This document shows positions 15,917 through 55,362 of a DNA stretch of 64,000 nt, in pieces. Made by a program: the position numbers and the translations under genes. The DNA is taken from contig CAZYXZ010000005.1 in assembly GCA_964651395.1 (NCBI GenBank), forward strand, positions 5,007-69,006, read 5' to 3'. Position 1 is the stretch's first letter; each line of letters begins with the position of its first letter. The DNA is from an uncultured Frankiaceae bacterium. Its GTDB lineage: Bacteria > Actinomycetota > Actinomycetes > BP-191. Below the pieces are notes generated by a model, which did not search any database, was not told the DNA's origin, and saw only the letters and a program-made list of their open reading frames with translations.

Positions 15917-18631
15917 ATGCGTATCGGCATCACCGGCGTCACCGGGCTCATCGGCAAGCGGCTGGCGACCGCCGCACTGGCCGCAGGCCACGAGGTGGTC
16001 GGCTTCAGCCGACGCCCATGGACCGGGGCGCCCTTTGTGCCCTTGGCGGACCGCCGCTTCCTGACCCTTCCGTCGGCGCCGTCTCCCGGCGACCTGAGCG
16101 GCGTCGACGCGGTCGTGCACCTCGCGATCGCCGCCCAGACGTCCAGCGCCGCACTCGCGCACGCCGTCAATTTCGACGGCACACGACGGCTCTACCAAGC
16201 GGCCGTCGTCGCGGGCGTCGGCCGCTTCGTCTTCGCCTCCACGCCGTCGGCGCACGCGGATGCGGTGTCCACGTACGGGAAGAGCAAGTACGCCGCGGAG
16301 CAGCTGCTGCGCGACGACCCGCGCGTCATCATCGTGCGACCTGGGCTGGTCTACGGCGAGAGCGCGGACGGCCTGCTCGGTAGAGCGGCGGGCATGGCCG
16401 GAAAGCTGCGCTTCTTCCCCGTGTTCGGCGGCACGATGGCCCGCGCGCAGCTCGTGCATGTCGACGACTTCTGCCGGGGCCTGCTCACGGTGCTGGAGAT
16501 GGCAGACCCGCCGCGCGACCTGAGCCTGGCCGAGCCGGACACGCGCCCGCTGGGTGAGATCGTGAGCGAACGCGCAGAGGCGCTGCACGGCGTACGCGCG
16601 CGCCCGATCAACATCGGTCTCAAGCCGGCCCGCGCCGCGCTGCGGATGGCCGACCGTCTGCACCTTCCGCTGCCCGTCTCCGAGGAGAACCTCGACGGCA
16701 TCGAGCAGTTCCGCGTCATGGACACTCGCCCGTCTCTAGAAGCTATCGGCCTCGAGCTGCGGTCGGAGACCGTGACCCCCCAGGCAGTCGGCCCGGTCCC
16801 GGAGGTCGAGCCGGCTCGGCTGCTCCTCGTCGGCGCCGGACGCATCGGCCTGGTGCACGCGCTCACCGCGCTGCATCATCACCGCCTCGTTCTCGCTGGT
16901 GTGGTCGACCTCGACAAGGCTGCGACCGGTCGGCTGGTGAGCCTGCTCGGCCGTCCGGTGCCGCGGTTCACGGACCTCGACGAGGCGATCCGCACGACCG
17001 GCGCGACCCTGGCCATCGTCGCGACCCCGCCGTCGTCACACGTGCCGCTCACGCGCAAGCTCATCGAGGCCGGCCTCGACGTCCTGATCGAGAAGCCTCT
17101 GGCGGCGCGCGCGGAGGACCGGCGCGAGCTCGAGGCGCTGCTTGCCGAGCGGCCCGGCCGCCATGTCGCGGTCGGCTATGTGGGACCTGTGCTGCCCCAC
17201 CTCGTCGCGGCGGGAGAGCGGTTGCGTGCAGGCCGGTACGGCACACCGATGTCTTTCGACGGGTGGGCGTTCGTCTCGCGGATCGAAGAGGGCGCGGCGG
17301 AACGCAAGGACATGTGGGAGCTCGACCCGGCGGTCGGCGGCGGCGGCGCCCTGATCAGCTTGGGAGTGCACGTGCTGTCGATGATCGACGTGCTCCTCGG
17401 GCCGATCTCGATCGACCACACCGTGGTCACGACCTCGGGCACGCGGCGGATCGAGGACGCGGCGGCCCTGGAGCTGACAGCGGGTGGCGTGAAGGGCCGC
17501 TTCGCCACCGCGTGGCACCTGCCGGGGTTCAACATGCCGGACAACACGCTGCGCATCACGACGGACCGCGGCGTCGTACTGCTCACCACGTCCTGTGCCG
17601 CCTTCCTCGGGAACGACGGCGAGGTCGATGTCATCCACCAGGTGGACGCGGACACCGGTTTCGACCTGGCTCCGCTCGACGCGGGTGGCGCCTTCTGGAC
17701 CGAGCAGGACGCGCTGGCACGCGCCGCCGATGCCGGCAACACCCCGCTGCTGGCCGAGCGGATCGAGTCCGCCATCGAGGGCGCGTACGCGGGTGCGGAG
17801 CAGCGCCGAGGGGCCCCGCTGGCTCAGACCACGCGACACCTCAGTCCGGCTCCGCGCACGCAGGACATCGTCGCCGACCTGCGGGGCGCGCCGGACGATG
17901 TGCGGCAGGCGCTGCGCGGCACCGGAGCCGTGCTCATCGGCAGTCCGGTCAGCGACGTGGACCGACAGCTGGTCATGGCTCCCGGCGCGATCGTGGCGGT
18001 GCCGGACGCACCGGCGCACTTCCGCACGCTGACCAACGACGGGCCGGTGGCACTGATTCGCGAGCTCGGTCCCGGGAACCTGACGGGGGCAGCGACCGGC
18101 CTCGCACCGTTGCGTGCCGCCAGCGCGGTGGATCGCCCGTGGGAGGCACTCCTCGTCCTCCTGCGCGCCGAGCTCCGACGGCTTCCCCGCGCCTACCGCG
18201 GCACAGTGGTCGTCGACGCCTACCTTGTCGACCTGGCCACGGCCAACGACCACGTCGCACCGATGGCTGCGGCGATCGCCGACATTCGCGGTCGGCTTCC
18301 GGGTGCGCGCGTCGGACTCGAGGTCAACGCCGTCGGCCGATTCGTCCCACACGTGCCTGCGCTGCCGCCCCTCGACATCGTGGTGGCGCTGGCCACCCCG
18401 GCCGGGACGGCGCTCGACGCGCTGCGCGAGGCGCTTCCGGAGACGACCGAGGTGGTGCTGAAAACCGGGACCGTCCCTGTCGAGGTCTCCGAGGTTGCCG
18501 CGGCCCGGCCAGAGCTCTGGCACAGCGGCGATGGCCGCCGGCTCGTCGTCGACTGGGCGGGCGCCGGTCTCGCGGACGCGCGCCGCGCGGACCTCGACGC
18601 GGCGCGCGCCGCGTCGGGCGCTGCGACGTGA
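15917..18631 (+). CDS. Three-domain fusion: NAD-dependent epimerase/dehydratase (SDR), Gfo/Idh/MocA oxidoreductase, and a C-terminal domain of unknown function
   Basis: GITGVTGLIGKRLA Rossmann motif and YGKSKYAAE (YxxxK). Central LLLVGAGRIGLVH plus an EKPLA motif (Gfo/Idh/MocA). About 300 aa of unassigned C-terminus with coding-like GC3. Confidence 0.6.
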   Translation: MRIGITGVTGLIGKRLATAALAAGHEVVGFSRRPWTGAPFVPLADRRFLTLPSAPSPGDLSGVDAVVHLAIAAQTSSAALAHAVNFDGTRRLYQAAVVAGVGRFVFASTPSAHADAVSTYGKSKYAAEQLLRDDPRVIIVRPGLVYGESADGLLGRAAGMAGKLRFFPVFGGTMARAQLVHVDDFCRGLLTVLEMADPPRDLSLAEPDTRPLGEIVSERAEALHGVRARPINIGLKPARAALRMADRLHLPLPVSEENLDGIEQFRVMDTRPSLEAIGLELRSETVTPQAVGPVPEVEPARLLLVGAGRIGLVHALTALHHHRLVLAGVVDLDKAATGRLVSLLGRPVPRFTDLDEAIRTTGATLAIVATPPSSHVPLTRKLIEAGLDVLIEKPLAARAEDRRELEALLAERPGRHVAVGYVGPVLPHLVAAGERLRAGRYGTPMSFDGWAFVSRIEEGAAERKDMWELDPAVGGGGALISLGVHVLSMIDVLLGPISIDHTVVTTSGTRRIEDAAALELTAGGVKGRFATAWHLPGFNMPDNTLRITTDRGVVLLTTSCAAFLGNDGEVDVIHQVDADTGFDLAPLDAGGAFWTEQDALARAADAGNTPLLAERIESAIEGAYAGAEQRRGAPLAQTTRHLSPAPRTQDIVADLRGAPDDVRQALRGTGAVLIGSPVSDVDRQLVMAPGAIVAVPDAPAHFRTLTNDGPVALIRELGPGNLTGAATGLAPLRAASAVDRPWEALLVLLRAELRRLPRAYRGTVVVDAYLVDLATANDHVAPMAAAIADIRGRLPGARVGLEVNAVGRFVPHVPALPPLDIVVALATPAGTALDALREALPETTEVVLKTGTVPVEVSEVAAARPELWHSGDGRRLVVDWAGAGLADARRADLDAARAASGAAT

Positions 18632-19008
18632 CGGCCACCATCTACCAGGCTTTCCTGCTCGCGATCGTGAGTGGCGTCGTACTCACGCTCACTGTCTGGC
18701 TCACCCGTCGTGGACTACTGTCGCTGCGCTTCGGGGTCAGCTGGCTGCTCATCTCGTGCCTGATGCTGCTCGGCGCGCTCATCGGTGCGGTTGACCTCGT
18801 GCGCCCACTGGCTGATGCACTCCATGTCACCCCCACCGGCCTGATCGTGGGAGGCCTGGGCGTCTTCCTTCTCGGCATGTCGCTGCACCTCAGCGTCGCC
18901 CTCTCCACTGAGGACCACGCCTCGCGCCGCCTGGCCCAGGAGCTCGCCCTCTTGCAGCAGCGCGTCGAGGAGCTGGAGGCGAAGCGGGCAAGCAAAGCGC
19001 GCCAATGA
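18628..19008 (+). CDS. DUF2304-like small membrane protein
   Basis: GTG start overlapping the upstream stop. Two to three TM helices plus a C-terminal coiled-coil (LAQELALLQQRVEELEAKRA). This architecture is typical of DUF2304 proteins found next to glycosyltransferases. Confidence 0.45.
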   Translation: MTATIYQAFLLAIVSGVVLTLTVWLTRRGLLSLRFGVSWLLISCLMLLGALIGAVDLVRPLADALHVTPTGLIVGGLGVFLLGMSLHLSVALSTEDHASRRLAQELALLQQRVEELEAKRASKARQ

Positions 19009-19118
19009 CGTGGACCGTGCCTGTAGTGAAGCCGGTCCCTACAGCAGCATGACCTAGAAACACACGCGACATGACGCCCACCCCGCCTACTCTGCAAAGC
19101 CGGAGATGGCCGAGTCGG

Positions 19119-19982
19119 CTAGCTGCGTAGAACACCGGCGATGGTGTGCCGGGCACGCTCTGGGAAGAGTCGATCAACGATCGTCCGATCGACGAGCCTG
19201 GCCGCACCGTCGGCATGCCGCCAGGGCAGCCTGCGGGCCAGCCCCGGGACACGACCGTGCACCACATAGGACGCGGTGATCACCAGAGTCTGGAAGAAGT
19301 CGACGACCTTCAGCTCGACGTCGTCGAAGCCGGCGTCCTGGCACAGCGCCACCAACTGCTCTTTTGTGAAGACGTGCAGGTTCGCGGCCATCGAGGCGAG
19401 CTCCCAGAAGTTCTCCTCTTCGCTCAGCGGGCGCTGCCTGAGCGCGAACAGGAGCCCACGGACGAGCACCGCGCCGTGCTTCTCGACCGTCGGGGTCGGC
19501 TCCGACAGCAGTACCACGCTTCCACCAGGGCGAAGCACGCGCCGCCACTCGACCAGCGCGGCACGCACGTCGGGCAAGTGGTGAAGCACCCCGCGCGCGA
19601 CGACGAGGTCGATGGACGCATCGGGGAATGGCAGCAGCTCCGCCTGGCACTGCAGAACCGGGTCCGCTCCCGCAGCTCTGGCTTTGTCGAGCATCCCGCG
19701 TGACAGGTCCGTGGCGATGGCGTGCACGTCGGGCCGTGCGCGCCTCAGTCCCGCGGCGACGAAGCCCGTGCCGCATCCGACGTCGAGGACTCGCTCGCCC
19801 GCTAGCAGTTCCCGACCGAGCAGGCCCTCGACTTCGCGTAGCGCCTGCGCCGCGCTCTTGTCGTCATGGCCGATTGCAAAGCGCTCGTCGTAGTAGGCGC
19901 ACTCGTGGTCGTGAAAGACCTTGTTGATCTTGACGGCGTCCCAGCCCTCGTCGACGAACCCCGTCGGCTCGGCATCACTCAT
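19119..19982 (-). CDS. Class I SAM-dependent methyltransferase
   Basis: VLDVGCGTG motif I. Confidence 0.7.
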   Translation of the reverse strand: MSDAEPTGFVDEGWDAVKINKVFHDHECAYYDERFAIGHDDKSAAQALREVEGLLGRELLAGERVLDVGCGTGFVAAGLRRARPDVHAIATDLSRGMLDKARAAGADPVLQCQAELLPFPDASIDLVVARGVLHHLPDVRAALVEWRRVLRPGGSVVLLSEPTPTVEKHGAVLVRGLLFALRQRPLSEEENFWELASMAANLHVFTKEQLVALCQDAGFDDVELKVVDFFQTLVITASYVVHGRVPGLARRLPWRHADGAARLVDRTIVDRLFPERARHTIAGVLRS

Positions 19983-20592
19983 CGCTGTACACCGCGTGCA
20001 CCCACAGGTCCGTCAGGCCGTCTACCAGGCGGCGGCTCTCGAGAGCCGGTCCCGGTGTGCGTCCTGCCTGCGCAAGCGCCACCGTCTGCTCGACCATCGC
20101 CGCGAGCGCCGCGGCAGCGACATCGACGTCGACCTCCGGGCGGGCACGCCCAGCGTCCCGTGCGGCGACAAGGTTGACGCGGATCCGCTGCACGAACTGC
20201 TTGCGCACCTCGTCCACCAGCTCGGCCAGGACCGGTTCCGACGGGGCCGCCGCGAACCACAGAAAGCGGATGTCCTGGTCACGCTCCGACAGCTCCACGA
20301 AACCAGTAATCACGGTGTGTACATCGTTGCGCACATCACCGCTGGTCCATGGCGCCTCGACGAGTTCGTAGAGCGCAGCGGCATGGCGCAGCACCAGTGC
20401 CTCGAGCACAGCCGTCTTGTTGGCGAAGTAGGCGTAGTACGTGCCGTGGCCAACGCCGGCAGCGCGGCACACGTCCTCGACGCGGGCGCGGCTCCAGCCG
20501 ACCTCGGCGAAGGCCGTCCGCGCCGCCTCGAGCAGGCGGGCGCGCGTGCGCTCGCCGCGGGACTGCGGCTGCTCCTCGGGAGCGATCGTCAC
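19975..20592 (-). CDS. TetR-family transcriptional regulator
   Basis: N-terminal HTH (ARVEDVCRAAGVGHGTYYAYFANK). GTG start at 20592. Confidence 0.8.
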   Translation of the reverse strand: MTIAPEEQPQSRGERTRARLLEAARTAFAEVGWSRARVEDVCRAAGVGHGTYYAYFANKTAVLEALVLRHAAALYELVEAPWTSGDVRNDVHTVITGFVELSERDQDIRFLWFAAAPSEPVLAELVDEVRKQFVQRIRVNLVAARDAGRARPEVDVDVAAAALAAMVEQTVALAQAGRTPGPALESRRLVDGLTDLWVHAVYSDE

Positions 20593-20601
20593 AGCCTGTG
20601 A
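20587..20601. promoter_or_regulatory. Perfect 7-1-7 palindrome GTCACAG-C-CTGTGAC overlapping the TetR start codon (candidate TetR operator)
   Basis: Read directly from the sequence. It lies in the divergent region between the TetR gene and the GT4 gene at 20660. Confidence 0.4.
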
Positions 20602-20659
20602 CCCTAGCCTGACGGCGCTTCCACCTCCGGCCTCAGCCCGCCCAATGCCTGGACGCCTT

Positions 20660-21766
20660 ATGCTCGCCGGGATGTCCGGTCCGCGCGTGGTGATCGTCCA
20701 CGACTACCTCAACCAGCTCGGTGGTGCTGAGCGAGTCGTGCTATCGATGCTGCGCGCGTTCCCCGGATCGCGAGTCGTCACCTCCGTGTACGCCCCAGAG
20801 CGCACCTACGACGAGTTCCGCGAGGTCGACATCGAGGCACTTTGGCCGAACCGGATCGGTGCGTTCACGCGGGACCAGCGGCGCGCGTTCCCGGTCCTGC
20901 GGCAGGCGTTCTCGCGGCACCTCATCGAGGATGCGGATGTCGTTCTGTGCAGCTCCAGCGGCTGGGCGCACGGCGTGCAGGCCGGTCCGGCGCGCAAGCT
21001 CGTCTACTGCTACACACCGGCTCGCTGGCTCTACGACAGCGACCGCTACACACGGGAGTCGTCGCGAATCGAGCGCTCGGCGCTGGCCGCGCTGAAGCCT
21101 GGGTTGATCCGTTGGGACCGAGCGGCCATGCGCACCGCGGACGACATCGCCGCGATCTCCAGTGTCGTAGCCGAGCGAGTGAACGAGACGTACGGCTGGC
21201 AGCCACGCGTGCTCGCGCCGCCGATGGTGCTCGACGCAGACGGGCCGACCGCGGCGCTACCCGGCGTGGAGCCGGGCTACCTGCTCGTGGTCAGCCGTCT
21301 GTTGTCGTACAAGCGCGTCGACCTGTTGTTGGACGCGATGCGTCGGCTGACCGAGCACCAGCTGCTGGTTGTCGGCGCCGGTCCGGATGCGGAGCGACTG
21401 CGCGGACTGGCGCCGGCGAATGTGACTTTCCGGGCGGGCCTCAGCGAGGCCGAGTTGCGGTGGGCGTATGCGAACGCTCGCGTGCTGCTCTCGGCAGCGC
21501 ATGAAGACTTCGGGCTCACGCCCGTCGAGGCCAACGCCTTCGGAGTGCCGGCGGCCGTAGTCCGTGAGGCGGGTTTCCTGGACACCATGGTGGAGGGCAA
21601 GAACGGCATGTTCTTCCCGTCGCTCGATCCCACGGACATCGCCGACACGGTCCGCGCGGTGCTCGACGCTGACTTCGAGACACACGTGGTGCGTGCACAC
21701 GCGGCGCGGTACTCCGAGACGTCGTTCATGCAGGAGCTGCGGGACTGGGCCGGGGTCGATCAGTGA
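20660..21766 (+). CDS. Glycosyltransferase family 4 (GT-B)
   Basis: GT4 layout with C-terminal [16 protein letters not shown]. Confidence 0.8.
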
Positions 21767-22716
21767 CAGAAGCGCTGTCACGACGCGCGGTGGTTACAGG
21801 GGGGGCCGGGTTTCTCGGCAGTCATCTGTGTGAGCGCCTGCTGGCCGACGGTTGGTCTGTGGTGTGCCTCGACAACTTCCTAACGGGTATCCCTGCGAAC
21901 GTCGAGCACTTGATGGAGAGGGAAGGGTTCCGGCTCGTCCGGTGTGACGTGACGAACTACGTCCACGTTCCAGGTGATGTCGACGCCGTGCTGCACTTCG
22001 CGTCGCCGGCCAGTCCCATCGACTACCTCCGGCTGCCCATCGAAACGCTGAAGGTGGGTGCCCTCGGCACATTGCACGCACTCGGTCTCGCGCGCGAGAA
22101 GCGGGCGCGCTTCCTGCTCGCCTCGACGTCCGAGGTGTACGGCGATCCGGAGATTCATCCGCAGCCGGAGACGTACTGGGGCAACGTCAACCCAATCGGT
22201 CCCCGCGGGGTCTACGACGAGGCGAAGCGCTTTGGCGAAGCACTCACCATGGCTTACCGACGTACGCACGGCGTGGATACGGCGATTGTCCGCATCTTCA
22301 ACACTTACGGCCCACGGATGCGGCCCAACGACGGCCGCGCGATTCCCACGTTCATTCGACAGGCGCTCGCGGGTGAGCCGGTCACGGTGGCCGGCGACGG
22401 CGGGCAGACTCGTTCCGTCTGCTACGTCGACGACCTCGTCACGGGGATCCTGGCGCTCCTCAACAGTGACCTGGCCGGTCCGGTGAACATCGGCAACCCG
22501 GCGGAGCTCTCGGTCCTCGATCTCGCGCGTGCCGTGATCGCGGCCGTCGGCAGCGAGTCGGAGATCGTGTTCGTGCCCCGACCCCAGGACGATCCCATGG
22601 TGCGGCAGCCCGCGATCGAGACGGCAACGGACCAGCTCGGCTGGAAGCCTCAGGTCGACTTGGAGGACGGACTGCGACGGACCATCGAGTGGTTCCGCGA
22701 GGCCGATCCGCGCTAG
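21763..22716 (+). CDS. UDP-glucuronate decarboxylase (UDP-xylose synthase)-like NAD-dependent epimerase/dehydratase
   Basis: [17 protein letters not shown] (YxxxK) and [15 protein letters not shown], which is UXS-like. ATGA coupling with the upstream GT4. Confidence 0.75.
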
Positions 22717-23801
22717 CCCTTCTGGATCAGACTCGTCGCGACCACGTCGTCGTAGATCTCGCGGATCCGCGGTCCCACGACGTCGGCGAGCATTGGGGCC
22801 GATGTGGCTCTGGCGCCGTCGGCGAGCCTCGCGCGCAGCTTCGGCTGGTGGGCGACCAGGCGGAGCGCCGACGTGAGCAGATCGGGTCGGTCACACGGCA
22901 CGAGCAGCCCATCGATCCCATCCGTGACCAGATCTGCTCCTGGGCCGGGCGACGTGGCGACTACGGTTCGTCCCGACGCCATCGCCGCGAGGATGAGGTC
23001 GTCGTGAGCGTCCTTCTCGTGCGTCAGGTCGACCACGACGTCCACGTCGGAGAGCCACTGGGGCAACCGGGCCACGGGAAGGTCGGCCGCCAGCACGACA
23101 TCTGCCTCATGTGACCGGTTCGGGAATGCGCGCTCGAACGAAGCCAGCGCCTCGCGGCGTGCTCCCTCTGTGGCACACCGCATTCCGAACTGGAGCGGCC
23201 GGTTCCGCGAGGACCGGTACTTGCTCGCCGGGAGCGGAGCCGTTGCGAACACGGGGCCGGGAATCACGACGCACCGTCGTGCGTATCGGGCCAGGGCGGC
23301 TGCGTCCACTGACGTGGCGATGACCGCGTGCGGCAGCCGCGGAACGAGGCGGCGCAGCGGGCCACGTGCCAATGCGTTGACGCCGGCGGCGCGGTCCTCG
23401 TCGCGTAGGTGCCAGACCAGCGGGACCTCCGCCAGCCGTGCTGCGATTCCGCCATACAGGGCCGAGCTCGCCGAGTTGGTGTGCACGACGTACGGGCGAA
23501 GGTGCTCGAGGCGTCGAGCGAGTCGCAGCACGTACGGAACGGTCGCCGCGGGCGCTGCGCCCTTGCGTCGGGGCAGCGGCAGGACCTCAGCGGAGATGCC
23601 ACGGTCGCGCATCACGCCGAGCAGCGGTCCGTCCTGACCGAACAGCACATGCGCGGCGATATCGGGAACTGAGTCGATCAAAGCGGCGAGTGCGAGACCC
23701 TCGCGCGATGCCTCGGCGGAAAGATGCACGTAGACGACACGCAGTCGCGGGTCATGGCCGCCGAGGTCATGGCCTCCGAAGATGTCGACCGGGTGTGTCA
23801 C
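22713..23801 (-). CDS. Glycosyltransferase family 4
   Basis: Only the C-terminal roughly 360 aa of the 556-aa ORF are GT4-like. The start is set at a GTG that overlaps the TGA stop of the upstream PT-rich gene (GTGA). The upstream 200 aa of that ORF is Arg/His-rich low-complexity. Confidence 0.65.
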
Positions 23802-24379
23802 CGCGCGGTGATGGTCGAGTGCACGCCGACGATGACGCCGCCGGCGATCAGTGCCAGCCCGAGAATGCGCAGTTCTGGACTCGAGGTGAATGGCGCCTCG
23901 ACGGTGTTGCCCACGGAGAGAGTCGCGGGCAGGGAGCTCGCCGATGGCAGCGGTGCCACGGTGTTGGGCGAGGCGGGCAGAGAGGAGACGGACACCGCCG
24001 GCGCCGAGGGCGACGGGGAGCGGGTCGGAGCTGGTGTTGGCGGCTTCGTGCTCGCCGCCGGGGCCGAGGTTCGCGTGGGAGTCGCTCGGGGTGACCTGGT
24101 CGGCGCGCGCGTGGGTGTGGGTCGTGGCGTGGGCGCCGTGCTGATCGACGTGACAGACGGCTTCGGTGACGGCGCCGGTGAGTTGCTCGACTGGGTCGGC
24201 GAGGGCACGGGTGATGCCGTCGTCGGCTCGGGCGACGGCGACTCGGTCGCCTGCGCGCGCTCCAGCGCGCGCCCCCCCGCTCCAGGCGCGGTCAGCAGCA
24301 GCAGTCCGCCGACCAGCAGCGGGGCCGAGCCCGCGAGTGCGGCGGCGGGTCCCACGCGCATCGACCTGCTCACTTCCAT
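23798..24379 (-). CDS. Secreted Pro/Thr/Ser-rich protein with C-terminal membrane anchor
   Basis: Signal peptide (MRVGPAAALAGSAPLLVGGLLLLTAPGAG), a long PT/S-rich linker, then LPATLSVG... followed by a hydrophobic segment and a basic tail (sorting-signal-like). Confidence 0.5.
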   Translation of the reverse strand: MEVSRSMRVGPAAALAGSAPLLVGGLLLLTAPGAGGRALERAQATESPSPEPTTASPVPSPTQSSNSPAPSPKPSVTSISTAPTPRPTPTRAPTRSPRATPTRTSAPAASTKPPTPAPTRSPSPSAPAVSVSSLPASPNTVAPLPSASSLPATLSVGNTVEAPFTSSPELRILGLALIAGGVIVGVHSTITAR

Positions 24380-24407
24380 TCACGGCTGACGACTGAACTG
24401 GTCCCCG

Positions 24408-25268: not shown

Positions 25269-25310
25269 GCACAGACCCTCGCACAGCACTCCTGACCGAC
25301 CGAATACCTT

Positions 25311-27724: not shown

Positions 27725-27762
27725 CGTGCACGCGGTGGGACCCCGTGCGCGGACCGCGTGGC

Positions 27763-32535: not shown

Positions 32536-32601
32536 GCGGGGCACGCTACATCGAGGCAGCGAACGGGCTGACCGCCGAGTCCTCGCCGCTAGGCTTGCCG
32601 G

Positions 32602-33573: not shown

Positions 33574-33596
33574 GGTTGTCGAAGAGAGGGTCGCCG

Positions 33597-34652: not shown

Positions 34653-36256
34653 TGGCGATGCTGCCGAATGAACCGCCGGGTGGGCACACGCCTGTGCAGC
34701 CCGTGCTGGCCGCGCGCGACGTGCAGTCCAGAACTCTGCGTGGGTCGCTGTGGGGCCTGGTGGCTGCAGCTGCGGGCGTGCCGCTCGCGGTCGTCTCCAC
34801 AGTCGTTCTCACTCGAACGCTCAGCCCACGAGACTTCGGCCGCTATGCACTCCTCGCATTCCTGGTACCCACGGCAATCAGCTTGACGGACCTGGGAGCC
34901 ACCAATGCCTTCCTGCAGCGGGGGGCAGCAGCGCTCGGCGCTGGTGACAAGGAGACGCTTCGCCGTACCTGTGGCCAGGCCACGACCTGGAGCCTGGCTC
35001 GGTGGCCAGCACTGGTGGTCGCCTCCGCATTTCTCTTCAGGGATGTTCTCGCCGTGGTGTTGATCAGCGTGGTCGGCGTGGTGGCTGTCGTCTGCGCCGG
35101 CAAGGGGATCGCGCTGCTGAGTTCCATCCGGAACGCCGACCTGGCGCGGATCTACCTGCTGGCCAACACTCTGGGAACGGCGACCACGGTCTTGCTGGCT
35201 GTCCAGAGATCGAGTCCTGAACGCGTGTTCCTCGGGGGTATGGCTGTCCACCACCTGGCCATGATCTTGCAATTGAGGCTGGACACGGCGGGCTCTGTCC
35301 GGACACGTGATTGCCTTCGCCCGGCTCGCCTCACTGGACTTGCCCAGGACCTGAGATTCGGCTCAGGGATCTATGCCAGTCAGACGATGACCAACCTGGC
35401 TTTGGGCAGATCGGAGTTGGCGTTCTTCGGAGCAGGTCAGGTGCAGGAGCGTGCTGTGTATGCGGGCGCCTTCACCATGGCCAGCCGTCTGACCCTCCCC
35501 TTCGATGCGCTCTTCGGCGCGCTCGCTCCGGGGCTGAGCGCGATCACGGCGGACGACGACGCTTGGCGTGCAGGCCGGGACCGCAGCCTTCGGCTCAGCG
35601 GGGGTTTGTTTACGCTGCTGGCAGGTCCCTTGCTGTTTCTCGTCGTCGTCGGGGCCGACCTGCTGTTCCCGTCGTCGTATGCCGGCCTTGGTGAAGCAGC
35701 TGTGCTGCTCGCCGGCGCCTCGCTGCTGGTCAGCAGCTGCAGCGCCATTCCCAACATCCACTTCGCATCCAGGCGAGTGGCGCCGCTATTGGTGGCCGCT
35801 GGCGTCGGCCTGGCCGTCAACGTCGCAGTGTGTGTCCTGCTCATCCCCGCGTTCGGCCTGGCCGGCGCTGTGGCCGCGAACGTCATCGGCGCGCTCGTCT
35901 ATTCAGTGGCGCTGCTCATACCGATGGCCGTCGGCGCTGACGGAGCTGCCGCCAGAAGGTTCGCCGCGGTGGTCCTGACCTCGCTCGGTTCTGCAACCAC
36001 CATCGCAGTGGCTGCGACAGCCATCGATTCACGGCCCGCCCGCTGGGTCGGGGCGGCGCTGGGGGGACTTGCCGCAACACTCCTTGTAGCGAGGCTCGGC
36101 AAGTTGCTGCTTCCTTCAGATGTTGCGGCTGCAGCTGGCGCGCTGCCGGCGAGGCTGTCAGTTCCGCTCGTTCGGCTCCTCGCGGGCGCCACGATTCCAC
36201 TTTCGCCGCATGACCCGGTAGGTGCTGGCGAGGAGCACACGGATGAGTCGCCGTAA
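34652..36256 (+). CDS. Wzx-like oligosaccharide flippase (MOP superfamily polysaccharide biosynthesis protein)
   Basis: 534 aa, about 12-14 TM helices. The position in the locus fits a Wzx flippase. Confidence 0.7.
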   Translation: MAMLPNEPPGGHTPVQPVLAARDVQSRTLRGSLWGLVAAAAGVPLAVVSTVVLTRTLSPRDFGRYALLAFLVPTAISLTDLGATNAFLQRGAAALGAGDKETLRRTCGQATTWSLARWPALVVASAFLFRDVLAVVLISVVGVVAVVCAGKGIALLSSIRNADLARIYLLANTLGTATTVLLAVQRSSPERVFLGGMAVHHLAMILQLRLDTAGSVRTRDCLRPARLTGLAQDLRFGSGIYASQTMTNLALGRSELAFFGAGQVQERAVYAGAFTMASRLTLPFDALFGALAPGLSAITADDDAWRAGRDRSLRLSGGLFTLLAGPLLFLVVVGADLLFPSSYAGLGEAAVLLAGASLLVSSCSAIPNIHFASRRVAPLLVAAGVGLAVNVAVCVLLIPAFGLAGAVAANVIGALVYSVALLIPMAVGADGAAARRFAAVVLTSLGSATTIAVAATAIDSRPARWVGAALGGLAATLLVARLGKLLLPSDVAAAAGALPARLSVPLVRLLAGATIPLSPHDPVGAGEEHTDESP

Positions 36257-37024
36257 CTCGACAGGTCGCACGCGTACCCGCGCCGCCAGCCACACGCCGG
36301 CGCGGGGCATGAGAACGGTGGGTCTGGGCCAGCCCGCCCAGTGGTAGACGGGACTGTCGTCAGGCCGGTCAAGCATCATTAGCGCCGAGACTGGTCGGTC
36401 CCCTCGCGTGAGCCGATCGGCGCGGATACCACCCTCGTCGATGAGGAAGTTGAAGAAGGGTTGCTCACCGGTCGGTGCAAATCCGCCCTTGCGAGACACC
36501 CCATCAGCGAGGAGGGATCTGGCCATCTCCAGGGACAGTGCTCCCCGGTTTGCTGCCCACACTCCGGTGTTCCAGCCGCGCGCGCCGTACTGCTGCTGCA
36601 TCTCTACGGCGAGCGCGCCGGTGTAGACAGCTGCCACGTCCTCGTCGGCGAACAGAAGTTGTGAGTCAGATTGAGCCAGCTCAGTCAACAGCCAGGACAG
36701 TGGCTGCCGCACTAGTACGTCGCAGTCGAGGAAGACGAAGCTCTGATATGGGCCGTCGAAGGTGGCCAGCTTGCGGAACAGACGTTGCCCGACGACGTTG
36801 TCGGCAAAGAACGCGGCACCCAGCTCGTCCCATTGTTCCAGCGTCCCCATGTCCTCCCAGTGACCGATCCCGTAGGTCTCAGCGACCTGGCTGATCAACC
36901 TGTTCGGGCCTCCGAACGGAATCAGCAGGACTTCCGCGTGTGGCTCGTGTCTTCTCAGGGTCGACATCGCCACGGACGCCCATTCGACAACGGCGTCGTC
37001 GCCCAGCAGGTAGTAGCCGTTCAC
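36158..37024 (-). CDS. Hypothetical protein, possible GT-A-like nucleotide-sugar transferase (DXD-like FLDCDVLV)
   Basis: 288 aa with coding GC3. ATGA-coupled to the upstream methyltransferase. Family assignment is weak. Confidence 0.4.
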   Translation of the reverse strand: MNGYYLLGDDAVVEWASVAMSTLRRHEPHAEVLLIPFGGPNRLISQVAETYGIGHWEDMGTLEQWDELGAAFFADNVVGQRLFRKLATFDGPYQSFVFLDCDVLVRQPLSWLLTELAQSDSQLLFADEDVAAVYTGALAVEMQQQYGARGWNTGVWAANRGALSLEMARSLLADGVSRKGGFAPTGEQPFFNFLIDEGGIRADRLTRGDRPVSALMMLDRPDDSPVYHWAGWPRPTVLMPRAGVWLAARVRVRPVELRRLIRVLLASTYRVMRRKWNRGAREEPNERN

Positions 37025-37833
37025 AGATGTGGGGAACAGACGGCCCAGCGCATCCGCTCCGGGCGATATTCGCTCAGAGCATGCTGGGCGTCGGCCACCG
37101 AGAGGAGGTCGAGGCTTTCCCGTACTCGCTCCGGACTCAGATGTGCTTCGTCGATCACGGTAACTAGGTGGGTTGGGGCGAGACGGTCCAGCACGACTGT
37201 TGTGATGGTCCGATCGACGAAGTCATGCAGCTCGACCACGATGTCGGCACTTGCGAGATTGGGCATCTTGTCTGGGCGCAGGAGCGTCAGCTCTGCGCCC
37301 TCCACATCCATGATCAACAAGCATCCGGGTTCCAGCAGTGCATCCAACTCAGTGGCGTCAACTTCGCCGCGAACGGCAACACGCTGATCGACTTCATTCA
37401 GCTGAGCCAGCCGGCGACACAGCTCACGGGCCCTCCTGTCTACGTCGATGGCGATGACGATGGCCTCCGGCAGGCGCCTGGCAAGCCCCACGGCGTAGTA
37501 GCCCTCAGCGGAGCCCACGTCGATGACCGTTCTGGGTCCCCTTTCGATGAGGTGCTCCAAGGGCTCGTGCAGCGCGCTCTCGTATGAACCCAGGACCTTC
37601 GGCCAGTAGGCGCTGCCGTAGGCTTCATCGATATACCTCATGCCGGCGAACGGCCCGGTGACAACGACGGCGGGCTGTCCGCGGAGAACGGCGCGGGAGA
37701 TGCGGCTGTTGCGAGCCTGAGCATGTCGACGCAGTAGACGTCTCCGCGGGTTCTGGTCCCACATCGTGGCAAGCCGTTCCACGACTGAAGTAGGGAGAGA
37801 TCGCGTCCCCCAGTTCTTGACCGCGTGACTCAT
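37021..37833 (-). CDS. Class I SAM-dependent methyltransferase
   Basis: VIDVGSAEGYY motif I. Start taken at the internal Met (MSHAVKNW...). Confidence 0.6.
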   Translation of the reverse strand: MSHAVKNWGTRSLPTSVVERLATMWDQNPRRRLLRRHAQARNSRISRAVLRGQPAVVVTGPFAGMRYIDEAYGSAYWPKVLGSYESALHEPLEHLIERGPRTVIDVGSAEGYYAVGLARRLPEAIVIAIDVDRRARELCRRLAQLNEVDQRVAVRGEVDATELDALLEPGCLLIMDVEGAELTLLRPDKMPNLASADIVVELHDFVDRTITTVVLDRLAPTHLVTVIDEAHLSPERVRESLDLLSVADAQHALSEYRPERMRWAVCSPHL

Positions 37834-37915
37834 TCGGTGCCAGGCAGGCGACGTCGGTGACGGTATGTGATCTTCGGTCACGCGCAGTTCTCCTTTGCCG
37901 ACAGCGGTGTGCGGG

Positions 37916-38749
37916 CTACCGCGATCGTGCGGCACGGTTGCGCAGCCGGCGAAGAGCGTTGAACACCGGAGCAGGTGCGTGATCGCGGATCACCGCGCGC
38001 ACGTAGCGCCCTAGAGGTCCGGGAATCGGCGGCACGACGTCCTCGCTCCCCGGCCGCTTCTGGAACCGGGTCGGATGGGAAACCCGGAGGCGCCTCACGG
38101 GCGCCGTGTAGTAGTACATCGCGATCGATCGCCGGCACCTCCCGGCCGGCGGAGTGAGCGGCTCCGGGTGACCGTGGTACGACGTCGACGTCGTGGAGAA
38201 AACCACGAGGCGGTTCAGGATTGGGAGCACTCGAACCGTAGGCTCCGTCAGCTGTTGGTCCCAGAGCTCCAGATGACCACCGAACTCTTCGTCCCAATCC
38301 GGGTTGAGGTAGAGGATCGCGTTCAGGCGCCGATCAAGCGCGAGACGCACGTGCTTGTTGAAGTCGGCATGCACCTTGAGAACGCCGCCCTCGGCGATCT
38401 GATGCAACCCACCGCCCTCCAGATGTGGGTCAGGAACAAGTCCGGTAATGCCGGTGAGCAGTTCGAGAAACTCCACGAATACCTGACCGTTGAGCTCGTG
38501 AATGAACTGCACGAGCGGACCAGGGATGAGCGCCTCGTCTCGCAATGAGTACTTTCGCTCGACCACGCTGTCGAAGCGATACCAGTCCTGTGTCGGCTCG
38601 GGGAACACCTCGGCGAGCTGATGGATGAGATCGTCAGGGAGGAAGTTGTCGATCACGACATGCGGGAACGGCACAGCCTGCGCATATGTCGAAGCAAGGT
38701 CCGCCGCTACCGGCAGCAGGTCTTCCCGGTCGAAGCGGAAGGTCGACAT
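37916..38749 (-). CDS. 2OG-Fe(II) oxygenase family protein
   Basis: HADF (HxD) followed by YHGHPEP (distal His). Confidence 0.6.
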   Translation of the reverse strand: MSTFRFDREDLLPVAADLASTYAQAVPFPHVVIDNFLPDDLIHQLAEVFPEPTQDWYRFDSVVERKYSLRDEALIPGPLVQFIHELNGQVFVEFLELLTGITGLVPDPHLEGGGLHQIAEGGVLKVHADFNKHVRLALDRRLNAILYLNPDWDEEFGGHLELWDQQLTEPTVRVLPILNRLVVFSTTSTSYHGHPEPLTPPAGRCRRSIAMYYYTAPVRRLRVSHPTRFQKRPGSEDVVPPIPGPLGRYVRAVIRDHAPAPVFNALRRLRNRAARSR

Positions 38750-38760
38750 GTCGCGCGAGT

Positions 38761-39972
38761 CTAGTGTCGGCGGCCGATGCGCATCCCGGGAACGGCGACC
38801 GGACGCCGGCGGCTGCGTGTGTGTGCAGGCGGGCCGAACTCGGCGATGGCGGCCTGTCGTCCGGTGGGTGCCAGCGGATGGGACTTGGAGACGGCGTCCG
38901 CGTAGAGGTCTGTCTGATCGCGGGCAATCACTGACCAGTCGAACTGTGCTGCTCGGCGGATTCCCACAAGCCGTCGGGTGGCGGTTTGATCCTTGTCCTG
39001 CGCAGCGACCAGCACGGCGTCTGCCAGCGCTCCAACGTCACCATCCGAAACCAATGTGGCGAGTTCCCCGGCAACCTCCGGGATGGCACCTGTGGCGTAA
39101 CCCGCGACGATCGCGCCGCAGGCCTGGGCCTCAACGGCCACGCGACCGAACTGCTCCACCCAGCTACTGGTGACGTGACTCGGCATGAGCAGGACATGCA
39201 TCCGCTGGTACTGCGCGACCAGTTGCTCGTGATCGGCCCACGGTTGGTGTTCTATGGTCAGGCCGGGACACTCGTCCGCTGCGCTCAGGGCCGACTCAAG
39301 CATGTCGCCTGCGCCGACGAGCAAGAGGCGACATGGTCGTTCCGCCGCAACGAGTCGTGCCGTCGTCACGGCATCCGCGACACCTTTGTGTGCCTCGAGT
39401 CGACCCACCAAGCCGAGGACGAGTTCGTCGGCGGACATGTCCTGCCGGCCAGGCGCGAAAAGGCTCGTGTCGAGGCCGAGCGGTATGACGGAGAGCGCAC
39501 CGCTGAAGCCCTTGCCGCGTGCAACCGACGCGGCTTGAGCGCTGCACGCGTAGATGCCGGAGACGCGTTGGAGGGCCCGTCGCTCCCACTGTGCGAAGGG
39601 CGGCGGGTAGCGCTTGTCGAGGTTTTGCGCCGTGTAACACGTCACGGGAAGGCGGGAGCCAACGAGGCGCAGGACTTGGCGCAGCACGGCGCTGACCGGT
39701 TCAGCGTGCACGTCGATCAGATCAGGTCGCACGCTGTCGATGACCGCCGCTAGCGGGCCGCGCTCGTACCAGTGCGCGTTGACGCTTCCCCCGCGCCGGA
39801 CTACTACCTCATGAATAGGGAACGCGTCAGTTGAGAGCCGACGCTCGCTCCCGGCGTCGGGCCACACGTTAGGCACCACGAGATGGATGTCGTTTCCGGC
39901 GTCGACCAGCGCTGCGTCACGCCGTCGGTGCGCGCGGTCACGACCCGCGTGGTAGATCCGCAATACGCGCAC
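38761..39972 (-). CDS. Glycosyltransferase family 4
   Basis: GTG start at VRVLRIYH, two nucleotides after the upstream gene's stop. EQFGRVAVEAQACGAIVA C-terminal motif. Confidence 0.75.
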   Translation of the reverse strand: MRVLRIYHAGRDRAHRRRDAALVDAGNDIHLVVPNVWPDAGSERRLSTDAFPIHEVVVRRGGSVNAHWYERGPLAAVIDSVRPDLIDVHAEPVSAVLRQVLRLVGSRLPVTCYTAQNLDKRYPPPFAQWERRALQRVSGIYACSAQAASVARGKGFSGALSVIPLGLDTSLFAPGRQDMSADELVLGLVGRLEAHKGVADAVTTARLVAAERPCRLLLVGAGDMLESALSAADECPGLTIEHQPWADHEQLVAQYQRMHVLLMPSHVTSSWVEQFGRVAVEAQACGAIVAGYATGAIPEVAGELATLVSDGDVGALADAVLVAAQDKDQTATRRLVGIRRAAQFDWSVIARDQTDLYADAVSKSHPLAPTGRQAAIAEFGPPAHTRSRRRPVAVPGMRIGRRH

Positions 39973-39974
39973 GA

Positions 39975-41039: not shown

Positions 41040-41041
41040 CT

Positions 41042-41881
41042 CTAGGTGCCTGCTCGCCAGTACGCGCCGGAACCGTCGATGTCCCTGATCTCGTCGTTGA
41101 TGTTGTGACGGTCGCGGAACTCCTGAACCGCGGCTTTGCAGGAGGAGACGCTTCCGTAGTCGTCGATGATGCAGAAACCGCCGGCTGACAACTTCGGGTA
41201 CAGCGCATCGAGCGCCTGCATCGTCGACTCGTAGAGGTCGCCATCCAGGCGGAGAACGGCGAGCTGCTCGATGGGAGCCGTCGGCAACGTGTCCTTGAAC
41301 CAGCCCACAAGGAACCGCACTCGCTCGTCGAGCAGGTCGTATCTGCGAAAGTTGTCTCTCACCTGCTCCACACTCACGGCCAGCTCATCGAAGCGGTCGA
41401 AGTGCGCCCCGGTGTCGGCGGGGTAGCGATGCGGATCCGGTGGCGGCAGCCCGCGGAATGAGTCGGCGACCCACACGGTGCGAGCCGTTTCCCCATGAGC
41501 CTTCAGGCACCCACGCATGAAGATCGTAGTGCCGCCGCGCCAGACCCCCGTCTCGATGAGATCGCCGGGCACCTGATCCGCAATCACACGGTCGATGCAC
41601 TCCTTGACGTTGCGCAACCGTCTGAGACCGACCATCGACTCGGCGCGCGCGGGCCAGTCGAGGCCGTTCTCTCTCGCGTGGGGGTCATAGGGGCGCTTGC
41701 GAACGAGTTCGTATCCGAGCCGATGAAGCGAGGGTCCAATGCGCTGACCGACCTTTTGCTTCCAGCTCGAACGCCCCATGCCCGTCAGCGCGCCGGCGAT
41801 CTCGTCGCTGTCCTCGAAGAGGCTCCGGGTGAGCGTCTTCATCAACAGGTCGAGGTAGAGCTCGCCTCCGGCATCCAGCAT
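41042..41881 (-). CDS. TylF/MycF-family (macrocin-type) sugar O-methyltransferase
   Basis: GDLIETGVWRGGTTIFM and DGDLYEST motifs characteristic of the TylF family. Confidence 0.8.
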   Translation of the reverse strand: MLDAGGELYLDLLMKTLTRSLFEDSDEIAGALTGMGRSSWKQKVGQRIGPSLHRLGYELVRKRPYDPHARENGLDWPARAESMVGLRRLRNVKECIDRVIADQVPGDLIETGVWRGGTTIFMRGCLKAHGETARTVWVADSFRGLPPPDPHRYPADTGAHFDRFDELAVSVEQVRDNFRRYDLLDERVRFLVGWFKDTLPTAPIEQLAVLRLDGDLYESTMQALDALYPKLSAGGFCIIDDYGSVSSCKAAVQEFRDRHNINDEIRDIDGSGAYWRAGT

Positions 41882-41910
41882 GCGAGAACTCTACGGTGCC
41901 AGGCCGCTCC

Positions 41911-42735
41911 TCACCGCGCGCGGTGAGCCACCACCTGGACGTACTCGGATGGGACCGCGAGCGCGCCATCGGTGGAGCGATTGCACTCGTCGGCAAGCGC
42001 GATGAGTTGGGTGCGCAGCGACTCACGTCCGGTGTCGTCGAGTGCCGCGGACGCCTTCACGATCGGTCCGTAGTAGGCCTGGAAAGTGTCGTAGAAGTGT
42101 GTGGCCGAGCGATAGCGGAATACGAAGTGTTGGCGCGTGATCTCCGCCGTGGCTCCGCTGCCGAGCAGTTGCTGGAGTCGCGCGTCCGTACCCCATAGCA
42201 GCGGCGACGGCACTCCGGTGGGCGGGGCGACGTGCGCCCCCACAATCTTGAACAGCCGCCCGATGAAGCCCTCGGGTGTCCAGTTGGCGAGGCCGATGCG
42301 ACCGCCGGGCTTACACACGCGCAGCAGTTCGGCTGCTGCACGGTCGGGGTCCGGGACGAACATCACTCCGAACGTCGAGAGAACGGCATCGAAGCTCGCA
42401 TCGGGGAAGGGGAGGTTCTCGGCATCTGCCACCTGCGTCTGGATGTCCAGCCCCTCGGCAGCGGCGCGTCGCGCGGCACACTCGAGCAGAGCCGGGACGT
42501 AGTCCGTTGCGGTCACCGCGGCTCCGCGCCGAGCGGCGGCCAGCGACGCATTCCCGTTGCCAGCGGCGACGTCGAGAACTTGCGAGCCGGCGACGATGTC
42601 GACGGCCTCGCAGACTGTCTCCCCGACGATCTGCAGTGTTGTGCCGATGACGGCGTAGTCGCCGCTGGCCCAGGTCGCCTGCTGGCGGGCCTTGACCGCT
42701 TCGAGGTCCGGCGTGGCGGTGATGGCGGTGGTCAT
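41911..42735 (-). CDS. Class I SAM-dependent methyltransferase
   Basis: VLDVAAGNGNASL motif I. Start at the ATG with an AAGGAG RBS (42735). Confidence 0.7.
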   Translation of the reverse strand: MTTAITATPDLEAVKARQQATWASGDYAVIGTTLQIVGETVCEAVDIVAGSQVLDVAAGNGNASLAAARRGAAVTATDYVPALLECAARRAAAEGLDIQTQVADAENLPFPDASFDAVLSTFGVMFVPDPDRAAAELLRVCKPGGRIGLANWTPEGFIGRLFKIVGAHVAPPTGVPSPLLWGTDARLQQLLGSGATAEITRQHFVFRYRSATHFYDTFQAYYGPIVKASAALDDTGRESLRTQLIALADECNRSTDGALAVPSEYVQVVAHRAR

Positions 42736-42748
42736 CTCTGCTGCTCCT

Positions 42749-43393
42749 TTAGCTGTTCGGGACGTGGCGTCCGCTGAATGCGACGAGTCGTTCGAGCGGG
42801 CTGGCACCCGCCGGCGGAGTGGTCTCGGCTGCGAAGGTGTCTCCGTTACGAAGCCCGGGCACCACGATCTGACGGGCAGCGGCTTCGATGTCGGCCACCA
42901 GTGCGTCGGAGGGCGCGTACTGCTGACCGGTGGCTGTGGCCAGGTCCCAGCCGTGGATCAGCCCGTCGAAGCACGTGTAGGCGGTGAACGTCGTGGCAGG
43001 CACGGTTCCGAAGGGCGCGTCCATGTCGCGCTCCTGCGATCCCGGGGTGTGTACCGCTGCGAGCAGCTCAGTCATCATCCGGTGCCAGTGCTCGGTGGTC
43101 GACTCCGGCGTGGTCGGGGCGGCCGGGGATGGACCACCGCGGAAGACCGGCGAGAAGTGCGTCGCGCCGTCGATCATGTGCTGGAGGACGCCGGTCACCG
43201 TGTACTCGTCGCACGGCGTGGGTGCGTCGAGCTGGTCCGGCCGGATGCCGTCGACCACGGGCCGGATCGCCTTGATGACCTCGTCGAGCTGTGCGACTGC
43301 GTCCATGCGGACTCCTCGGGTAATGGCGCTGGCGACGGCTTCCCGGTCGCGACCGAGCGTGATGAGCTGCTCCGTGGTCGGGATCTGCGTCAT
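42749..43393 (-). CDS. DinB/TIGR03086-like (mycothiol-dependent maleylpyruvate isomerase N-terminal domain) family protein
   Basis: Start at the ATG with an AAGGA RBS. Family call rests on overall similarity of the N-terminal helical bundle (H-x3-H-type region); moderate. Confidence 0.5.
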   Translation of the reverse strand: MTQIPTTEQLITLGRDREAVASAITRGVRMDAVAQLDEVIKAIRPVVDGIRPDQLDAPTPCDEYTVTGVLQHMIDGATHFSPVFRGGPSPAAPTTPESTTEHWHRMMTELLAAVHTPGSQERDMDAPFGTVPATTFTAYTCFDGLIHGWDLATATGQQYAPSDALVADIEAAARQIVVPGLRNGDTFAAETTPPAGASPLERLVAFSGRHVPNS

Positions 43394-54851: not shown

Positions 54852-54853
54852 CG

Positions 54854-55337: not shown

Positions 55338-55362
55338 TCGATCGTTGAGCAGAGGAGTGGAA

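Follow-up and report, generated by a model that had tools for sequence, protein, structure and literature searches.

A methyltransferase-rich Wzx/Wzy-type polysaccharide locus in a 64-kb window of high-GC DNA

The subject of this work is a polysaccharide gene locus at positions 15917-43393 of a 64-kb window, that is, the whole stretch of 64,000 nucleotides of contig CAZYXZ010000005.1 that was analysed and to which all positions refer. The GC content of the window is 0.63-0.73, and raw lists of open reading frames (ORFs) from such DNA are full of spurious frames; genes were called with a codon model for which the clearest ORFs served as the training set. Every candidate ORF between 2 kb and 63 kb of the window was scanned against Pfam and NCBIfam, and searches of the sequences in the PDB were added for gene identities. 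The interval proved to be tiled completely by 26 genes, which comprise 10 glycosyltransferase (GT) candidates, six methyltransferases, a Wzx, a Wzy and a Wzc, a UDP-glucuronate decarboxylase (UXS) and a fusion of a short-chain dehydrogenase/reductase (SDR) with a GFO/IDH/MocA domain, together with a 2-oxoglutarate (2OG)-Fe(II) oxygenase, a TIGR03086/DinB-like protein, a TetR regulator, a DUF2304 protein and a 193-aa Pro/Thr-rich membrane ORF. The genes to which the argument refers are as follows, the methyltransferases being of the class I, S-adenosylmethionine (SAM)-dependent type where so marked.

15917..18631, + strand: g01, 904-aa tri-domain oxidoreductase (PF01370 74.6 bits, PF01408 68.6 bits, PF22725)
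19119..19982, - strand: g03, class I SAM methyltransferase (Methyltransf_11/25 in Pfam; motif I LDVGCGTG)
20660..21766, + strand: g05, GT4 (PF00534, PF13439; the longest ORF starts at 20441)
21763..22716, + strand: g06, UXS-like extended SDR (PF01370, PF16363)
22713..23801, - strand: g07, GT4, 362 aa (PF13579, PF13439, PF13692; codon-model start)
24408..25289, - strand: g08, GT2 (PF13632, PF13641, PF00535)
25311..26492, + strand: g09, GT4 (PF00534, 109 bits)
26489..27781, - strand: g10, Wzy-like polymerase, Wzy_C/O-antigen ligase-like (PF04932 41.5 bits, cutoff 31.7)
27763..29493, - strand: g11, Wzc-type polysaccharide co-polymerase/bacterial tyrosine (BY) kinase (TIGR01007 160.7 bits, cutoff 108; also Pfam and motifs)
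29579..30595, - strand: g12, GT4 (PF00534, 82 bits)
30585..31748, + strand: g13, putative glycosyltransferase of the WbsX family (PF14307, 418 bits)
31723..32544, - strand: g14, Methyltransf_24/CmcI-like class I methyltransferase (PF13578 31.1 bits, cutoff 26.3)
32602..33573, + strand: g15, methyltransferase (Methyltransf_23) with an N-terminal zinc ribbon (PF13489, 82 bits)
33570..34652, + strand: g16, GT4 (PF13692, PF00534)
34652..36256, + strand: g17, Wzx-like flippase, Polysacc_synt_3 (PF13440 29 bits, cutoff 23)
36158..37024, - strand: g18, GT8-like retaining glycosyltransferase of GT-A fold, from a rare family related to NCBIfam Npun_R2821/R2822
37021..37881, - strand: g19, FkbM-family class I methyltransferase, a weak match (TIGR01444 38.6 bits, cutoff 37.7)
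37916..38749, - strand: g20, 2OG-Fe(II) oxygenase, prolyl 4-hydroxylase (P4H)/Tpa1-like (PF13640 61.4 bits, cutoff 27)
38761..39972, - strand: g21, GT4, 403 aa (PF00534, PF13692; gene call on contig L001)
39975..41039, - strand: g22, GT4 (PF13692, PF13439)
41042..41881, - strand: g23, TylF-family metal-dependent sugar O-methyltransferase (PF05711 353 bits, cutoff 23)
41911..42735, - strand: g24, class I SAM methyltransferase, Methyltransf_11/25 (PF08241, 89.5 bits)
42749..43393, - strand: g25, TIGR03086/MDMPI_N (DinB-like) metal-binding protein (TIGR03086 136 bits, cutoff 83; PF11716)

A preliminary description of this DNA had taken it for a Wzx/Wzy/Wzc polysaccharide locus, and this stands, in that the domains pass their curated cutoffs and the motifs of the BY-kinase are complete. 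The Wzc-type g11 has a Wzz-like N-terminus with two transmembrane (TM) segments, followed by a P-loop kinase with Walker A (GEGKT, 267-271), A' (VDADLRRP, 291-298) and B (LVIFDTPP, 368-375) motifs, and ends in a tyrosine cluster, YAYAYEY (437-443). Hydropathy analysis gave about nine hydrophobic segments for the Wzy-like g10 and multiple TM segments for the Wzx-like g17. The latter is also 43-49% identical to the genes that occupy the flippase position in two related metagenomic loci, JGI 3300050222 (L082) and 3300049432 (L085).

The glycosyltransferases consist of seven GT4 enzymes, one GT2, one WbsX and one GT8-like protein. A single GT2 (g08) and a single WbsX-like transferase (g13) had been predicted and were recovered as such, and the WbsX-family protein has 595 relatives in a scan of 185,579 species genomes, the best at 62-65% identity, with no close orthologue above 65% in that set. 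On the other hand, the 11 GT-B/GT4-type genes claimed earlier come down to seven by Pfam, and since 26 genes fill the interval there is no room for four more; the only additional ORF, at 23798-24379, encodes the Pro/Thr-rich membrane protein.

The GT8-like gene g18 lies beside Wzx. It has no match in Pfam and falls below the cutoff of NCBIfam NF045582 (E 1.5e-14), and a literature search on Npun_R2821 returned nothing directly relevant. A first search gave five relatives and a profile search 15 in all, including a hypothetical protein of Anabaena. Within this family a DxD motif (100-102 in g18) is invariant and an HWAG motif (228-231) is kept. The AlphaFold (AF2) model built on the 15-sequence alignment reached a pLDDT of 91.6; a model from the single sequence (pLDDT 35.5) was dropped. 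The best Foldseek matches of the model were glycogenin, the xyloside xylosyltransferase XXYLT1, WbbM and LgtC (E about 2e-8, TM-scores 0.5-0.57). The family profile, when run against the PDB sequences, matched almost exclusively GT8 enzymes (glycogenin-2, E 0.004), and the Pfam GT8 model gave in return just a weak match to one member of the family (E 0.14). Based on the predicted fold, the profile matches and the two motifs, we read g18 as a GT8-like glycosyltransferase that is not filed as a member of Pfam GT8. The enzymes glycogenin, LgtC, XXYLT1 and the GT8 domain of WbbM would share with it the fold and a colinear DxD and H-x-x-G, but they are just 12-19% identical to it, the Pfam GT8 model does not match it significantly, and its own family is small (15 members). 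The genes g17 and g18 are convergent and their 3' ends overlap by 99 nt (36158-36256). The same convergent arrangement of Wzx and g18-family genes is found in L085, with an overlap of 17 nt, and in the related metagenomic Wzy/Wzc loci the homologues of g18 always adjoin a Wzx homologue (43-49% identity).

Gene g18 is also the last of an operon that runs on the minus strand from 43393 down to 36158 and begins with g25. The preliminary description had counted nine co-directional genes with near-zero gaps; the genes are indeed co-directional and tightly packed, but they number eight, and the gaps, in order, are 13, 29, 2, 2, 11, 34 and -4 nt, i.e. between -4 and 34 nt. Start codons were placed by the codon model, and for g19 and g21 by independent gene calls on contig L001, a 6.6-kb contig on which the operon was assembled alone. 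No terminator-like site was found on the operon strand, and a scan for promoter and terminator consensus sequences is uninformative in DNA of such high GC. The operon could be viewed as a system of its own, in which the Wzx/Wzy/Wzc core at approximately 20.4-36.3 kb is independent of the eight genes at 36.2-43.4 kb, and the latter, with their own three glycosyltransferases, three methyltransferases, oxygenase and DinB-like protein, produce a methylated oligosaccharide, or else a glycolipid or protein-linked glycan. Its tight packing on the strand opposite to Wzx would agree with such a division, as would its GC content (0.63-0.68, the lowest in the island described below), its separate assembly on L001, and the resemblance of its TylF and Methyltransf_11 enzymes, which are closest to natural-product sugar methyltransferases. 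However, a flippase, an ABC transporter and genes for lipid or aglycone biosynthesis are all missing from the operon, and wherever homologues of its last gene occur in related loci, they adjoin Wzx. Furthermore, Blastococcus sp. TF02-8 (NZ_QOHK01000004.1, L006) carries nine orthologues of the locus (35-61% identity) in a single 16-kb Wzy/Wzc cluster, where the counterparts of the GT4 genes of the operon, g21 (47%) and g22 (50%), are interleaved with WbsX and the core glycosyltransferases. Orthologues from both halves in one cluster, and the linkage of g18 to Wzx, indicate that the two halves belong together; the locus is thus not split into unrelated clusters in related genomes, the outcome that the preliminary description had named as one that would count against it, and two separate systems appear unlikely.

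Six of the 26 genes encode methyltransferases, one short of the 'at least seven' claimed earlier. The TylF-family enzyme and the zinc-ribbon methyltransferase of that claim are g23 and g15, respectively, and the two enzymes placed to the right of the interval were also found, an FkbM-family protein at 46831-47757 and a class I SAM methyltransferase of type MT11 at 52117-52686. When the former is counted, the 16 kb from 31.7 to 47.8 kb contain six methyltransferases. The match of g23 covers positions 2-263 of the 264 of the PF05711 profile, its relatives in the PDB are 4cdz, 5i10, NovP (2wk1) and MycF (4x7u) at E 1e-77 to 1e-82, and its acidic metal-binding motifs are LDGD (212-215) and IIDDYG (238-243). 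In g15, CxxC pairs at 6-9 and 49-52 precede the Methyltransf_23 domain. A weak colinear match to TcaB9 (E 1.2e-4) led to its consideration as a nucleotide-sugar C-methyltransferase of that type, which was rejected, given that the N-terminal Zn-binding (PF08421) and the C-terminal (PF08484) domains of that type are unmatched and that g15 is about 90 aa shorter than TcaB9; C-methylation of the polymer, which had been proposed and for which this resemblance would be the sole basis, seems overstated. Of the remaining enzymes, g14 shows weak matches to RMNT_CmcI and to a rhamnosyl O-methyltransferase, and g19 to Pfam MTS and Methyltransf_21, and a 43% homologue of g19 is found 4 kb from WbsX in locus L049. 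In the PDB, g24 comes closest to O-methyltransferases of small molecules and sugars, among them 6uv6, which is a D-glucose O-methyltransferase. Lastly, g03 lies downstream of the TetR gene g04, with an overlap of 8 nt, and may be unrelated to the glycan, being co-transcribed with that regulator.

Genes for sugar supply and redox tailoring agree with those named in the preliminary description, namely a UXS-like decarboxylase (g06), a 2OG-Fe oxygenase (g20), a DinB-like protein (g25) and an SDR-Gfo/Idh/MocA fusion (g01). The match of g06 to human UXS1 (4gll, 2b69) extends over residues 6-313 with E 6e-108 and 364 bits by phmmer, and the next family, which is not UXS, follows at E 1e-46 and 163 bits. 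With such a decarboxylase present, UDP-xylose is a likely sugar donor. The oxygenase g20 retains the metal-binding triad, with H127-A-D129 and a distal histidine in YHGH (191-194), as well as R206/R207, candidates for the basic residue that binds 2OG. It belongs to a large family, with 3,279 clusters at E <= 1e-10, whose members are stand-alone proteins of about 280 aa and are often labelled in their source as Tpa1-like prolyl hydroxylases. Three of the four homologues seen elsewhere are in or beside Wzy/Wzx/GT loci and are 43-51% identical to g20, in a Protofrankia symbiont (L088, CAAAFR010000032.1), an ENA locus (L090) and an Acidimicrobiales locus (L033); the fourth (L089) is not. The association of the family with glycan loci looks recurrent, these three coming from actinobacterial genomes and MAGs that are not related to one another, and a literature search on 2OG oxygenases in Wzx/Wzy loci found no characterised example. 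A hydroxylated polysaccharide, which had been suggested as a possibility and for which the presence of this P4H/Tpa1-like protein would be the sole basis, is speculation. The tri-domain g01 is SDR/epimerase-like over 1-215 and GFO/IDH/MocA-like over approximately 300-555, matches Gfo/Idh/MocA proteins in the PDB, and has in addition a third, conserved C-terminal region of about 300 aa (approximately 600-904) without a family assignment. A search of 1.84e9 cluster representatives gave about 20 full-length relatives of 900-970 aa, at up to 54% identity and none with a known function.

Some of these tailoring genes (g03, g20, g24 and g25) might be bystanders that act on small molecules or proteins, a view compatible with a polysaccharide locus and one that we regard as possible, if somewhat doubtful. 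It is favoured by the overlap of g03 with the TetR gene, by the membership of g25 in a mycothiol-type DinB family, by the non-sugar methyltransferases among the nearest solved relatives of g24, and by the prolyl hydroxylase labels of the relatives of g20, one of the three genomic contexts fetched for these being non-glycan. Nevertheless, g20, g24 and g25 are located inside a tightly coupled operon with three glycosyltransferases, and most g20 homologues elsewhere (three of four) keep company with glycan genes.

The locus extends beyond the interval to the right. In every gene from g02/g03 (approximately 19 kb) to the FkbM gene (47,757) the GC content at third codon positions (GC3) is 0.72-0.85; that of the flanking genes is 0.89-0.94. 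The compositional island is therefore approximately 19.1-47.8 kb, and its low GC3 suggests horizontal acquisition. With a GC3 of 0.876, similar to that of the flanks, g01 is peripheral and loosely attached to the island. To the right of 43393 the island includes a broken acyltransferase, a small cupin-like ORF, a LuxR/TPR regulator and, as its last gene, the FkbM methyltransferase. The remaining genes of the interval and those outside it are as follows.

18628..19008, + strand: g02, DUF2304 small membrane protein (PF10066 38.1 bits, cutoff 25.5) with four hydrophobic segments
19975..20592, - strand: g04, TetR-family regulator (PF00440, EthR_C)
23798..24379, - strand: g07b, 193-aa ORF supported by its translation and frame-specific GC3, without a Pfam match
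43508..44683, + strand: O-acyltransferase, Acyl_transf_3, interrupted (PF01757 on both halves)
45194..46834, + strand: LuxR-family regulator with TPR (MalT-like) repeats (PF00196 71 bits and TPR matches; GC3 0.78)
46831..47757, - strand: FkbM-family methyltransferase (PF05050 52.6 bits; GC3 0.81)
52117-52686: MT11 methyltransferase (Pfam)

The start of g02 overlaps the stop of g01 by 4 nt. The protein g07b has a signal-like hydrophobic N-terminus, a middle part rich in Pro, Ser and Thr, and a hydrophobic C-terminal anchor; its gene is placed between those for the GT2 (g08) and a GT4 (g07), and its stop overlaps the start of g07. A single in-frame TGA (43784-43786) cuts the acyltransferase into parts of 92 and 298 aa, which could mean either a pseudogene or a sequencing error. 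The nearest relatives are found in Blastococcus, Kineosporia and Cellulomonas, which, together with the presence of a TIGR03086/mycothiol-type DinB protein, points to Actinomycetota. Six proteins of the locus for which an exact look-up was made are all singletons at 90% identity among about 15e9 sequences.

Other features of the window deserve a brief mention. Directly after the FkbM methyltransferase comes a gene similar to ketol-acid reductoisomerase (KARI; 47776-49149, - strand, GC3 0.908), adjoined by a 631-aa ORF (48838-50733, + strand) with good coding statistics and no match in Pfam or padloc. Just upstream of the locus, a 1211-aa protein (9651-13286, - strand) has no more than a short N-terminal match to GH106 alpha-L-rhamnosidases (29.8 bits); a role in glycan degradation is possible, but its GC3 is flank-like. 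A 685-aa protein (4518-6575, + strand) of odd architecture, in which an MFS_1 domain (31-370) is fused to an ABC_tran ATPase (459-602), sits within an ABC transporter cluster of the branched-chain amino-acid type. A block of low GC (0.63-0.64) at 54273-58926 looks like a mobile or defence island. Besides an HTH protein it encodes a CapP/IrrE-like metallopeptidase (padloc capP, E 3.7e-12), a DUF6791-ThiF protein to which padloc E1-E2 models match and, on the minus strand at 57172-58926, a tyrosine integrase. The window has no tRNA genes.

Taken together, these observations probably describe a horizontally acquired Wzx/Wzy-dependent heteropolysaccharide locus of about 28 kb, from a high-GC, probably actinobacterial, genome, and a methylated, xylose-containing product is plausible. 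Domain identities, catalytic motifs, operon layout and the conserved linkage in related loci are shown by the sequence analysis; what the enzymes act on, in which order they do so and what they finally make is inferred from these. In the pathway so proposed, a phosphoglycosyl transferase encoded outside the locus would prime the polyprenyl phosphate carrier, and up to ten cytoplasmic glycosyltransferases would then assemble a large, probably branched repeat unit. The UXS-type decarboxylase would convert UDP-glucuronate, which other parts of the genome must provide, into UDP-xylose. Sugar hydroxyls would be O-methylated by four to six SAM methyltransferases (TylF, FkbM, CmcI-like, zinc-ribbon and Methyltransf_11 types), acting either on nucleotide sugars or on the repeat unit while it is lipid-linked, and the 2OG-Fe(II) oxygenase and the DinB-like metal protein might add or edit further groups. 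Wzx would flip the repeat unit across the membrane and Wzy polymerise it, while the Wzc-type tyrosine autokinase would control polymerisation and chain length.

Several observations weigh against this interpretation. Ten glycosyltransferases are many for one repeat unit, and the assignment of Wzx, though consistent, is weak (29 bits). The substrates of the methyltransferases cannot be read from sequence, g03 is part of a TetR operon, and g24 and g25 resemble small-molecule enzymes. Among the ORFs scanned across the window there was no match to the initiating phosphoglycosyl transferases (WbaP type, PF02397, Bac_transf; WecA type, PF00953, Glycos_transf_4), nor was a UDP-glucose dehydrogenase, a Wzb-type phosphatase or an LCP ligase found. 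With neither a priming transferase nor a UDP-glucose dehydrogenase in the window, the pathway depends on genes outside it. It is common for a priming transferase to be encoded apart from its locus, and the enzyme may be present elsewhere in the genome. The stop codon in the acyltransferase hints, in addition, at some decay. An extreme version of this view is that the island is partly decayed or silent and makes no polymer, its methyltransferases being a mosaic of accumulated genes without a coherent product. The in-frame stop and the priming transferase not found in the window are in keeping with it, as are the atypical composition, the singleton status of the six proteins looked up and the rearrangement of gene order relative to Blastococcus. 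Yet the reading frames of the other genes are all uninterrupted, their catalytic motifs are preserved and their translation is coupled, the lone stop may be a sequencing error, and an unlinked priming enzyme is common; we consider such decay very unlikely, and retain a functional heteropolysaccharide locus as the likelier interpretation.

A more ambitious proposal would make the g20 and g18 families dedicated glycan enzymes which, with the TylF-, FkbM- and CmcI-type methyltransferases, install a pattern undescribed for Wzy-dependent polysaccharides. On a repeat unit that is multiply O-methylated and contains xylose, this pattern could involve hydroxylation of sugars, oxidative demethylation or bridging, and the chances of such a scheme seem rather slim. 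Were the product to be characterised, the small set of structurally known actinobacterial Wzy-dependent glycans would gain a heteropolysaccharide that is heavily O-methylated and contains xylose, and substrates would be gained for several enzyme families that are repeatedly met in glycan loci but have as yet no function assigned in them, namely a P4H-like 2OG oxygenase, a rare Wzx-linked GT8-like enzyme, a TylF-type enzyme outside natural products and a conserved SDR-Gfo/Idh/MocA tri-domain protein. As it is, the locus represents one more variable surface-polysaccharide island, fairly ordinary save for its many tailoring enzymes, and the most useful by-products of the analysis are the GT8-like assignment of a rare Wzx-linked family and the recurrence of a P4H-like oxygenase in glycan loci.

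Comparison with related loci helps to place the tailoring genes. The Blastococcus cluster shares g05 (44% identity), g08 (52%), g09, g10 (Wzy), g11 (Wzc), g12, g13 (WbsX), g21 and g22 with the window. It differs in gene order and in two extra GT2 genes, and across the 21 kb fetched, genes for methyltransferases, UXS, a 2OG oxygenase and DinB-like or GT8-like proteins are all lacking. The tailoring genes are thus additions to a shared glycosyltransferase skeleton. The metagenomic loci L082 and L085 have in common with the window the pair of Wzx and g18 (41-49% identity), Wzc, Wzy, GT4 and Acyl_transf_3 genes, and L085 also carries WbsX. Each has three methyltransferases per ~20 kb (Methyltransf_23, 21, 24 and 11 types) but lacks TylF, UXS and the 2OG oxygenase, and in L085, unlike in the window, a Bac_transf priming enzyme is part of the locus, as is a sigma factor. 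The methyltransferases of the window are not close homologues of theirs, which fits independent recruitment. No methyltransferase was seen in the stretches available of the Blastococcus, Protofrankia symbiont and ENA loci. A phmmer count over 62 comparator loci of at least 15 kb gave 0-2 methyltransferases each, but this is a lower bound that misses most of those annotated by Pfam in L082 and L085, and it was not used. The enrichment noted in the preliminary description is real, with six of 26 genes in the interval compared with none in the Blastococcus skeleton and three per ~20 kb in the metagenomic loci.

With regard to characterised enzymes, TylF-type proteins of natural-product pathways methylate deoxysugars on polyketide or aminocoumarin aglycones. 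The catalytic domain of g23 aligns with those of NovP, MycF, 4cdz and 5i10, with the LDGD and DDY acidic motifs kept, but its setting is a Wzy polysaccharide locus, and the window has no aglycone or dTDP-deoxysugar genes. A literature search on methylated or xylose-containing actinobacterial glycopolymers returned nothing directly relevant. Among described systems, the wps-1, wps-2, wps-3 and imp clusters of Actinoplanes missouriensis are Wzx/Wzy-dependent exopolysaccharide or capsular polysaccharide clusters of 10-11 genes; for wps-1 and wps-2 alike the description includes a SAM methyltransferase, and a sugar (priming) transferase domain is encoded within wps-2 (PMC13390465). Like the window, these clusters combine Wzx, Wzy and a Wzz/kinase-type co-polymerase with GT4 and GT2 enzymes and SAM-methyltransferase tailoring in a high-GC Gram-positive genome. 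The window differs in its size (~26-31 genes), in its six to seven methyltransferases, one of them TylF-type, in its UXS and 2OG oxygenase, and in having no priming enzyme. The chemistry had been called unusual for actinobacteria, which is overstated, the difference being a matter of degree; related loci carry three methyltransferases each and the present one stands at the top of a continuum of methyltransferase load, rather than being a different kind of locus.

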